In this document: positions 13,704 through 14,197 of the stretch, piece by piece
How positions within the stretch are numbered: position 1 is the stretch's first letter
Layout: the number at the start of each line of letters is the position of its first letter
From: Candidatus Staskawiczbacteria bacterium RIFCSPLOWO2_01_FULL_43_17b
Lineage (GTDB): Bacteria; Patescibacteriota; Minisyncoccia; Minisyncoccales; Staskawiczbacteraceae
NCBI GenBank assembly: GCA_001820305.1
Contig: MHPC01000002.1
Coordinates: 1-40,969 of the forward strand
Direction: 5' to 3'
DNA length: 40,969 nt
Position numbers and translations under genes: made by a program
Notes under the pieces: generated by a model
The model's input: the letters and a program-made list of their open reading frames with translations, nothing else
What the model was told of the DNA's origin: nothing
Database searches by the model: none

Positions 13704-13737
13704 GGGTCCATAGTTCAGTGGTAGAATGTCCCGATAA
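13704..13737 (+). pseudogene. 5' fragment of a tRNA-Ile gene (acceptor + D-arm + GTCC CGATAA), remnant of disrupted ancestral tRNA
   Basis: GGGTCCATAGTTCAGTGGTAGAATG nearly identical to 5' 25 nt of tRNA-Ile at 13786; no downstream anticodon-stem partner. Confidence 0.6.
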
Positions 13738-13877
13738 ATTTAGCTTTTGCTAAATTGATACGGGATCCCGTATCAAAATTTTGGTGGGTCCATAGTTCAG
13801 TGGCAGAACGCTGTCCTGATAAGACAGAGGTCGAAGGTCCGATTCCTTCTGGACCCACCAAAATTTTTATCGGGACC
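13728..13877. mobile_element. MITE-like hairpin element copy 1 (TIR GTCCCGATAAA...TTTATCGGGAC; internal palindromes ATTTAGC-TTTT-GCTAAAT and TGATACGGGATCCCGTATCA) enclosing an intact tRNA-Ile
   Basis: same element without cargo at 26734-26811; flanking GTCC(C/T)GATAA on both sides resembles a duplicated anticodon stem-loop target. Confidence 0.5.
13786..13860 (+). tRNA. tRNA-Ile (anticodon GAT), CCA encoded; T-loop TCCGATT (C55)
   Basis: acceptor GGGTCCA/TGGACCC, D-arm GTTC-AGTGGCA-GAAC, anticodon stem CTGTC/GACAG loop CTGATAA, T-stem GAAGG/CCTTC, discriminator A. Confidence 0.85.
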
Positions 13878-13890
13878 GTCCTGATAATGT

Positions 13891-14170
13891 GGAGGTAAGG
13901 AGTGTAAGAAAGAATTAAAAACATTTTAGCGGTAGCGGATTCAGGCAAGATTCAAGGCGCGAGGAACAAATTGAATGCCGGAGGTATTGTTTGTTCCGAA
14001 GCAACGATGAAGCTTGCCTGAATCCGCCCGCCCGGAGGGAAGCCAAAAAATAAATAATTTCTGCGTTATCCCTCCTCGGCGTAGCGCATGGGCTATGCCT
14101 CGTCGGCAAGCCTTGAAATTATTTCATTTTTTGAGCTTCTAAAAGTGCTTTTAATTCTTTCTTACACTCC
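13891..14170 (+). ncRNA. about 280-nt structured element A (family of two): 22-bp closing helix GGAGTGTAAGAAAGAATTAAAA/TTTTAATTCTTTCTTACACTCC, inner helix GGATTCAGGCAAG/CTTGCCTGAATCC, conserved single-stranded ATTCAAGGCGC and GCAACGATGAAG, 3' hairpin + U-tract
   Basis: copy B at 14604-14881 keeps the same core and architecture with different (compensatory) helix sequences; sits between tRNA-Ile and a direct repeat of its 3' 26 nt. Confidence 0.55.
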
Positions 14171-14171
14171 C

Positions 14172-14197
14172 AGGTCCGATTCCTTCTGGACCCACCA
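14172..14197 (+). repeat. direct repeat of tRNA-Ile 3' end (AGGTCCGATTCCTTCTGGACCCACCA) - attR-like remnant
   Basis: identical to T-loop-to-CCA of tRNA-Ile at 13835-13860. Confidence 0.8.

Follow-up and report, generated by a model that had tools for sequence, protein, structure and literature searches.

An intact tRNA-Ile gene nested between the pieces of an older tRNA-Ile copy in a Candidatus Staskawiczbacteria genome

Organization of the tRNA-Ile locus

We analyzed the tRNA-Ile locus at positions 13704-14197 of a stretch of DNA of 40,969 nucleotides (nt), hereafter the window, from Candidatus Staskawiczbacteria, an ultra-small groundwater bacterium of the Candidate Phyla Radiation (CPR, or Patescibacteria). 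On the + strand the locus reads, in order, a promoter, the 5' part of a tRNA-Ile, a hairpin cassette (H) that contains an intact tRNA-Ile(GAT), the old anticodon arm, the first copy (A1) of a palindromic repeat named element A, and the old 3' end. We refer to the intact gene as the inner copy and to the pieces around it as the outer copy. A preliminary description had divided the locus into five pieces, and every one of them is present, on the + strand, at or within a few bases of where it had been placed. The features are as follows.

13602-13634 or 13602-13644, + strand: terminator-like hairpin with a T run, ending the upstream transcription unit
13664-13692, + strand: promoter TTGACT-17-TAAAAT with TG upstream, 11 nt ahead of the 5' end of the outer tRNA
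13704-13728, + strand: positions 1-26 of the outer (ancestral) tRNA-Ile, GGGTCCATAGTTCAGTGGTAGAATG, comprising the acceptor 5' strand and the D arm
13729-13785, + strand: left arm of cassette H, comprising a closing-stem strand, a hairpin, a palindrome and the stalk strand AAAATTTTGGT
13786-13860, + strand: inner intact tRNA-Ile(GAT) with encoded CCA, reported by ARAGORN and scoring 70.4 bits with Rfam
13861-13875, + strand: right arm of cassette H, made up of AAATTTT (stalk strand) and TATCGGGA (closing-stem strand)
13876-13898, + strand: anticodon arm of the outer tRNA, CCGTC-CTGATAA-TGTGG, followed by AGGTAA
13899-14170, + strand: element A1, a palindromic repeat of 272 nt comprising a closing helix and two long arms
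14171-14197, + strand: 3' end of the outer tRNA, comprising the T loop, the 3' strand of the T stem, the acceptor 3' strand and CCA

The outer 5' piece GGGTCCATAGTTCAGTGGTAGAATG (13704-13728) is followed directly on its 3' side by TCCCGATAA and departs from the inner copy by two transitions in 25 bases; 0 such matches are expected in shuffled sequence. The closing stem of H is formed by TCCCGATAAA (13729-13738) with TTTATCGGGA (13866-13875), and TCCCGATAAA can alternatively be read as positions 30-38 of the old tRNA. Two internal palindromes of H lie at 13739-13754 (a hairpin) and 13755-13776. The TGGT leader of the inner tRNA pairs with ACCA, and the flanking AAAATTTT pairs as well, which gives an 18-bp helix including the acceptor stem. 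Downstream of the cassette, GTCCTGATAA is repeated at 13878-13887 within the hairpin CCGTC-CTGATAA-TGTGG. Element A1 splits the outer tRNA between approximately positions 47 and 51, immediately 5' of the T loop, and its closing helix is a perfect 22 bp that extends to 29 nt at 93% complementarity. The 22-bp helix is as previously described, and the length of the element has to be corrected from 280 to 272 nt.

An exact repeat of 26 nt (13835-13860 and 14172-14197; 0 expected in shuffles) has ~311 nt between its two copies. It had been taken for an attL/attR-like duplication created by the insertion of element A; instead the downstream copy is the old gene's own 3' end, and A lies inside the old gene. 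We consider it highly improbable that the locus is a decayed integrative element, i.e. the remnant of an integrase-driven insertion with the 26-nt repeat as its attL/attR pair. A direct repeat of a tRNA 3' end flanking ~311 nt is what such an element would show, though the old gene's own 3' end accounts for it equally well, and an intact tRNA, an insert and a duplicated 3' end also follow each other in three loci of other CPR bacteria (L107, L113 and L120). However, integration at an att site makes no duplicated upstream 5' part, and the old anticodon arm lies between the repeats in the correct order. The reported lack of an integrase also holds: neither an integrase nor a transposase was found among the Pfam families of the genes called within ~10 kb on each side.

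The neighbouring peptidase carries an annotation to Candidatus Staskawiczbacteria of the Rifle aquifer data set. The same arrangement is present at 99.9% identity in contigs L001 and L002, which come from other samples. Several contigs of the same organism stop within H or A, and contig L003 crosses over within element A (11700-12200) to another, fourth copy of A that adjoins rpmG. This switch indicates that A repeats provoke chimeric joins and contig breaks. The A1 join in the window is nevertheless sound because the two arms of A1 are copy-specific and complementary to each other. A mis-join across repeats, a concern raised in the preliminary description, could be suspected from the many contigs ending inside H or A and from L003, but is hardly credible as the origin of the layout: three assemblies from different samples agree, the repeats of 18-26 nt are shorter than the assemblers' final k-mer (the contig names begin with k141), and numerous unrelated data sets contain nested loci of this kind.

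The resident gene and the inner copy

Our data indicate that the outer pieces are the original gene and that the hairpin cassette with the inner tRNA is the insertion, since an empty site is found behind a homologous promoter in L017, the closest relative found (its neighbouring peptidase is 67% identical). L017 has the same upstream peptidase gene, a promoter homologous to that of the window and then an unbroken tRNA-Ile from position 1 to position 50, where its contig ends; the empty-site evidence comes from this one relative and covers these 50 positions. A comparison of the orthologous locus had been suggested as a check on the ancestral-gene reading, and its outcome favours that reading. 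Around the peptidase homologues P0005, P0006 and P0024 the gene order is not kept and no tRNA-Ile is close by, and among the peptidase homologues only P0002/L017 is informative for the comparison of the locus.

The outer copy carries the changes C25T, T28C, G39T, A40G, C41T and A42G in the conserved region and is also 2 nt shorter before the T stem, at least 7 changes overall in that region. Its anticodon stem retains 4 of 5 pairs thanks to a double change and two wobble pairs; the loop is unaltered. The 31-39 pair is broken and the T stem is shortened. Because of the substitutions in the core, the loss of 2 nt and the splitting of positions ~47/51 by element A, we conclude that the outer copy is out of the constraint on tRNA-Ile.

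The inner tRNA-Ile(GAT) is presumed from its sequence to be a functional gene. Its positions 8-64 match the tRNA-Ile of L043, another Staskawiczbacteria genome, at 100% identity, and its 27-nt core was found in at least 120 metagenome loci with many differing acceptor stems. The probe of this metagenome scan was the exact, uninterrupted tRNA 27-mer, and each locus returned thus holds an intact copy.

Nested tRNA-Ile loci in other CPR bacteria

Among the loci fetched, 22 of 112 tRNA-Ile(GAT) genes (~20%) have a same-strand fragment of themselves within 700 nt, compared with 4 of 75 other tRNAs. In seven loci (L133, L151, L056, L086, L088, L122 and L070) the upstream fragment ends in CCTGA and the downstream fragment starts with TAAGACAG, with an intact tRNA-Ile on a leader/trailer stalk between the two, which corresponds to an insertion at position 35/36 of the anticodon loop. 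A second cluster of breaks falls in the T loop at positions 54-63 (L107, L098, L113, L120 and L099). The window, too, is broken in these two regions, the anticodon region and the T loop.

The outer copies are graded, from one identical to the inner copy (L133) down to those that have lost the 3' part (L082, L092 and L093), and as judged from the sequences this is the series expected of relics of unequal age. In five of the ten clearest cases (L151, L056, L086, L088 and L092) the acceptor stem of the outer copy is unlike that of the inner copy, each stem being complementary to itself, and the inner acceptor type GTGTCTG of L086 and L088 is that of an ordinary resident gene in L095, L131 and L148. 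Hence at least some inner copies are from another lineage. L133, L060 and L093, like the window, have one and the same acceptor stem in both copies. The ends of the cassettes vary between loci without conservation. Extra layers of fragments are found in L133, L098 and L122, and these multi-layer loci point to repeated insertion events.

Several further observations were made at these loci. Between the intact tRNA-Ile and the duplicated 3' end (from position 57), L113, L120 and L098 have in common a non-coding element of ~150 nt ending in CGAGGGAGA, which matches no Rfam family. The D loops of outer copies in L151, L075, L042, L086, L088, L091, L164, L100 and L068 contain GC-rich palindromes of 18-35 nt, and one type of D-loop hairpin is common to the outer tRNA-Ile of L151 and the outer tRNA-Ala of L075. 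CCA-encoding tRNA-Ile genes of CPR bacteria often have a leader complementary to their 3' end (TTTGGT ... ACCAAA and beyond), and such leaders lengthen the acceptor stem of the precursor by 6-13 bp (e.g. in L060, L092, L085 and L093).

Association with small GIY-YIG nucleases

Open reading frames (ORFs) of 80-88 amino acids (aa) with a GIY-YIG catalytic domain alone, based on Pfam, lie between the intact tRNA and the displaced fragment in L107, L100, L098 and L068. In L075 a GIY-YIG ORF lies between a 5' fragment of tRNA-Ala and an intact tRNA-Ala. Overall, seven of the eight such ORFs in loci L047-L166 are within 600 nt of a tRNA-Ile. L120 holds a 150-nt non-coding stretch at the place of the GIY-YIG ORF in its relative L098, and the two loci differ by an ORF and a 95-nt insert. 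The window has one ORF of this type:

9365-9628, + strand: 87-aa ORF with a GIY-YIG catalytic domain only, possibly a nuclease acting in trans on the tRNA locus

An alternative hypothesis could be that the tRNA-Ile was duplicated into itself by local rearrangement, through template switching or slippage at palindromes, with no mobile cassette or nuclease involved. The region is rich in palindromes, the copies in the window share their acceptor stem and the 26-nt 3' end, as do the copies of L133, L060 and L093 in kind, and the cassette ends are not conserved between loci, all of which speaks for such a process. However, five other loci have inner stems unlike the outer ones, an identical pair of loop positions is broken repeatedly across lineages, the H sequence is present elsewhere in the genome, and GIY-YIG ORFs are found within related cassettes. 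We therefore regard local rearrangement as unlikely, with a small but real chance of being correct.

Proposed history of the locus

At this locus an insertion with an intact tRNA has entered the resident gene, the outer copy is a relic, and element A was inserted later. Our analysis suggests that, quite probably, a self-complementing insertion replaced the resident tRNA-Ile and that the relic then took a second, unrelated insertion, element A. The preliminary description had put forward an ancestral tRNA-Ile broken by nested insertions, with the hairpin element bringing a replacement; the empty site of L017 and the recurrence of such loci in other CPR lineages bear this out.

The resident gene behind the promoter, i.e. 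the outer copy, would have been broken in its anticodon arm by the short, ORF-less hairpin cassette H, which carries a complete tRNA-Ile on a leader/trailer stalk. The event would be costless to the cell because the insert supplies a working copy of the essential gene that it breaks. The outer halves would then have become a relic and drifted, and the palindromic repeat A, which is spread across CPR bacteria, would have inserted just 5' of the T loop. We speculate that the starting event is a site- or structure-specific break in the loops of tRNA genes, possibly made by small GIY-YIG nucleases acting on structured DNA, and that the break is repaired by capturing or copying DNA, the survivors being those repairs that bring an intact tRNA-Ile together with its native stalk flanks. 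Renewed cutting of the inner copy may be what the layered loci record.

The locus is presumably one transcription unit, with the inner tRNA-Ile(GAT) as its sole working product, as far as the sequence allows one to tell. In bacteria, tRNA precursors are processed by RNase P and 3' trimming, perhaps also by RNase III. The inner tRNA would accordingly be freed from a precursor of ~500 nt through the action of RNase P and trimming at the 3' end, with RNase III perhaps cutting the long helices beforehand, and the remainder would be degraded.

If true, the break-and-repair model would explain why the sites are fixed and the ends of the cassettes vary, why stalks look native and some inner copies are foreign, why nuclease ORFs hitch-hike and why loci are layered. 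The history would represent a minimal route for insertion into an essential single-copy gene, in which a whole spare tRNA sits inside the old one, and would explain the turnover of tRNA genes and their replacement by foreign ones in genomes of ~1 Mb. The link of small GIY-YIG nucleases to the loops of tRNA genes is directly testable. For annotation, it matters that tRNA finders report the inner gene alone and miss the relics, and that the repeats break assemblies at such loci.

Several points weigh against this history. The exact insertion point of H is ambiguous, since it can be read as 26/27 with no duplication or as 35/36 with a 9-nt duplication of positions 27-35. Five of the six stem substitutions of the outer copy in the window preserve pairing (~p = 0.005, a post hoc estimate and not a formal test), and the outer and inner acceptor strands of the window are identical. 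The retained pairing and the identical acceptor strands hint at constraint or gene conversion and not at free decay; the outer halves may still be under selection to pair with each other, for example to avoid misfolding with the inner tRNA. With the same acceptor stem on both copies, a foreign origin of the inner copy is not visible at the window locus. As for the nuclease, no such ORF lies in the inserts of the window; its GIY-YIG ORF is 4 kb upstream, outside the locus, and 31% identical to that of L107. The GIY-YIG ORFs consist of the catalytic domain only, which makes a homing role putative, and the inner copy retains the presumed target sequence, so that its escape from a site-specific nuclease is unaccounted for. 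Finally, genomes that have the interrupted gene alone are invisible to the scan with the exact 27-mer.

The outer copy as a working interrupted gene

The retained pairing and the blindness of the 27-mer scan to genomes that have no intact copy would also fit a gene that still works, in which H (with its tRNA) and A are removed from the RNA and the outer halves are joined or held together, giving two tRNA-Ile or a tRNA-like scaffold. ARAGORN reports a tRNA-Ile(GAT) from the outer pieces after in-silico excision of 13729-13875 and of A, in 81 boundary combinations. The full 494 nt fold with a z-score of -14.7 against shuffles, into a minimum-energy structure closed by the outer acceptor stem. 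In the related loci, the insertions in outer copies are mostly in the D, anticodon and T loops, with stems that are often paired (L151 and L088). More generally, the outer copies might be alive, so that tRNA genes of CPR bacteria would be interrupted in up to three loops and served by an undescribed bacterial pathway, the product being a second tRNA-Ile or a scaffold controlling the maturation of the inner tRNA.

We consider the working interrupted gene quite improbable, and give its general form the same very small chance. The broken 31-39 pair and shortened T stem of the window copy argue against it, the outer copies of L082, L092, L093, L122 and L086 are plainly decayed, and a second product with an identical anticodon would be redundant. 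No known intron family was matched. The group I intron model RF00028 had no match in 13500-14400 even at E values up to 10, and none in six related nested loci at E values up to 0.1, though it does detect a real group I intron in L038. In Rfam searches at gathering and permissive thresholds, only tRNA matches were significant in the locus, the region of H2 (the second H copy, listed below) and the six related loci. The junctions in the window are not of the bulge-helix-bulge type, and no bulge-helix-bulge (two 3-nt bulges, 4 bp apart) was seen in the folds of L133, L151, L056, L086 and L088, in which the stalk prolongs the anticodon stem with a small internal loop. The archaeal tRNA splicing endonuclease is not known from bacteria, which also counts against a working interrupted gene.

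A permuted or split tRNA had been named as another way to read the locus. This reading finds no support, as the pieces are collinear, have neither a bulge-helix-bulge nor a known intron family, and form an outer copy that has diverged from the conserved core. We consider splitting or splicing of the tRNA unlikely.

Elements A and H

Elements A and H occur elsewhere in the window. Including A1 and the cassette at the tRNA locus (H1), there are three copies of A in the window and a fourth adjoining rpmG, and two copies of H. The additional copies in the window are as follows.

14605-14879, + strand: A2, second copy of element A, with the same core and another closing helix, intergenic
39275-39545, - strand: A3, third copy of element A, inverted relative to A1, within the 16S rRNA gene in the helix-6 region
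26737-26808, + strand: H2, the H hairpin element with no tRNA, having ATACT at the place of the tRNA in H1, intergenic

A search with a degenerate motif of the A core found homologues in 27 of 29 genome contigs, often in several copies per genome; the hosts include Staskawiczbacteria, Portnoybacteria, Harrisonbacteria, Berkelbacteria, Paceibacter and others. The copies are 266-280 nt long, with a closing helix of 25-33 bp and two long arms, and at 34 of the 63 consensus pairs two or more Watson-Crick types occur. Between copies the closing-helix arms vary, with their complementarity kept; in A3 the closing helix is ~20 bp and stands at the base of the insert in the 16S helix-6 region. Element A occurs in both orientations. 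A strand test based on G-U versus A-C mismatches and on the fold energy of both strands showed no consistent strand preference, and for this reason A cannot be called an RNA gene of one strand. Many copies are bordered by TA or TTA, and no consistent direct repeat was established. Element A has no match to an Rfam family. In our reading, it is a palindromic DNA repeat that was inserted into the tRNA relic.

No copies of H were found outside this organism. In viral contigs the A motif had no matches, and the matches of the H motif were unrelated GC-rich coding sequence. A likeness between the flank of the inner tRNA and the promoter region of the outer gene was dropped, being of low complexity and present in H2 too.

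Some A copies have tRNA-related features or neighbours. The right arm of the closing helix, for example in L041, L026, L030 and L036, is tRNA-like, GGTTCGAATCC-CGCAC-TCT, resembling a T loop, T stem and acceptor 3' strand, and the left arm is complementary to it. In three CPR genomes (L022, L023 and L031) an A copy adjoins, and is divergent from, tRNA-Ser(CGA), at a distance of 2 nt in L023. In the rRNA operon of a Portnoybacteria genome (L028, 1708-1980) an A copy occupies the whole spacer separating tRNA-Ile from 23S rRNA. In the A2 region of the window (14554-14879), A2 starts right after a strong terminator hairpin and a promoter-like TTGCAA-17-TACAAT, and by its sequence A2 might be transcribed on its own.

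Relation to known systems

In the literature we found no account of a tRNA nested in its own disrupted copy, or of inserts that carry a tRNA. The closest parallels are intronless homing, in which gene ends are duplicated, and integrative elements that restore a tRNA gene upon entering it. In intronless homing, a free-standing homing endonuclease gene brings along a replacement for part of the gene that it invades; examples are SegB in the tRNA gene cluster of phage T4 and, in the mitochondria of Allomyces, an endonuclease ORF accompanied by a second atp6 3' end. The likeness is that a nuclease-linked insert enters an essential gene and supplies a duplicate of the part it breaks, with the displaced fragment remaining. 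Here, however, a whole tRNA may be carried, nested in the old anticodon loop. Moreover, the window cassette has no ORF, and the ORFs of related cassettes (80-88 aa, catalytic domain only) have no DNA-binding domain and a nuclease activity that is putative. Tyrosine integrases reportedly target tRNA genes and restore their 3' end (Williams 2002). Elements of this kind likewise prefer the anticodon loop and the T loop and leave a duplicated tRNA 3' end, whereas the loci described here have no integrase, a 5' fragment that is duplicated too, and inserts of only ~0.1-0.4 kb.

Small palindromic repeats and miniature inverted-repeat transposable elements (MITEs) are known inside genes and RNA genes, e.g. 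the Rickettsia palindromic elements and the Correia elements. Elements A and H resemble these, and also the rRNA intervening sequences that RNase III excises, in being short, non-coding, multi-copy, palindromic and found in either orientation, and A is present in 16S rRNA. They differ in that the closing arms of A vary yet stay complementary and resemble a tRNA T loop and acceptor strand, and in that no transposase or target-site duplication was established for A or H. With the multi-intron, split and permuted tRNAs of archaea, the locus shares an outer tRNA interrupted at several loops and a cloverleaf obtained in silico; in contrast, it is from a bacterium, has no bulge-helix-bulge, keeps its pieces collinear at one locus and has an intact, redundant copy inside.

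Group I introns at position 35/36 of the anticodon loop are described for tRNA genes of Patescibacteria (PMC13011429), and a term search within that paper did not find a tRNA nested in its own disrupted copy. The phylum is the same and the related loci use the same unusual 35/36 position, whereas here there is no group I core, the tRNA is inside the insert and there is no sign of self-splicing. Among CPR bacteria, genes for rRNA have uncharacterized ORF-less insertions that are not introns, and some others with GIY-YIG ORFs (PMC11270868). Element A would be a characterized family among these "uncharacterized" rRNA insertions.

Other features of the window

The 16S rRNA gene at 39202-40969 covers model positions 1-659 only, matched over 1768 nt; it also contains ~880 nt of inserted sequence that includes a LAGLIDADG-like ORF (~39930-40810). 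An ORF of 835 aa at 6635-9142 matches the shoulder (MVP_shoulder) and repeat (Vault_3) domains of the major vault protein, which is unusual in a bacterium with a tiny genome. Arrays of degenerate TTAGGG/CCCTAAA-like heptamers are present as inverted repeats at 5214-5302, 6206-6328, 15716-15765, 35807-35828 and 37628-37770; one set stops exactly where tRNA-Gln begins on its 5' side (6329), and another is situated upstream of tRNA-Thr (38540). A palindromic pair within 22986-23414, with arms of 27 nt that are 96% complementary and 375 nt apart, overlaps a 124-nt repeat, the second copy of which is located 6.7 kb away at 29761-29884.

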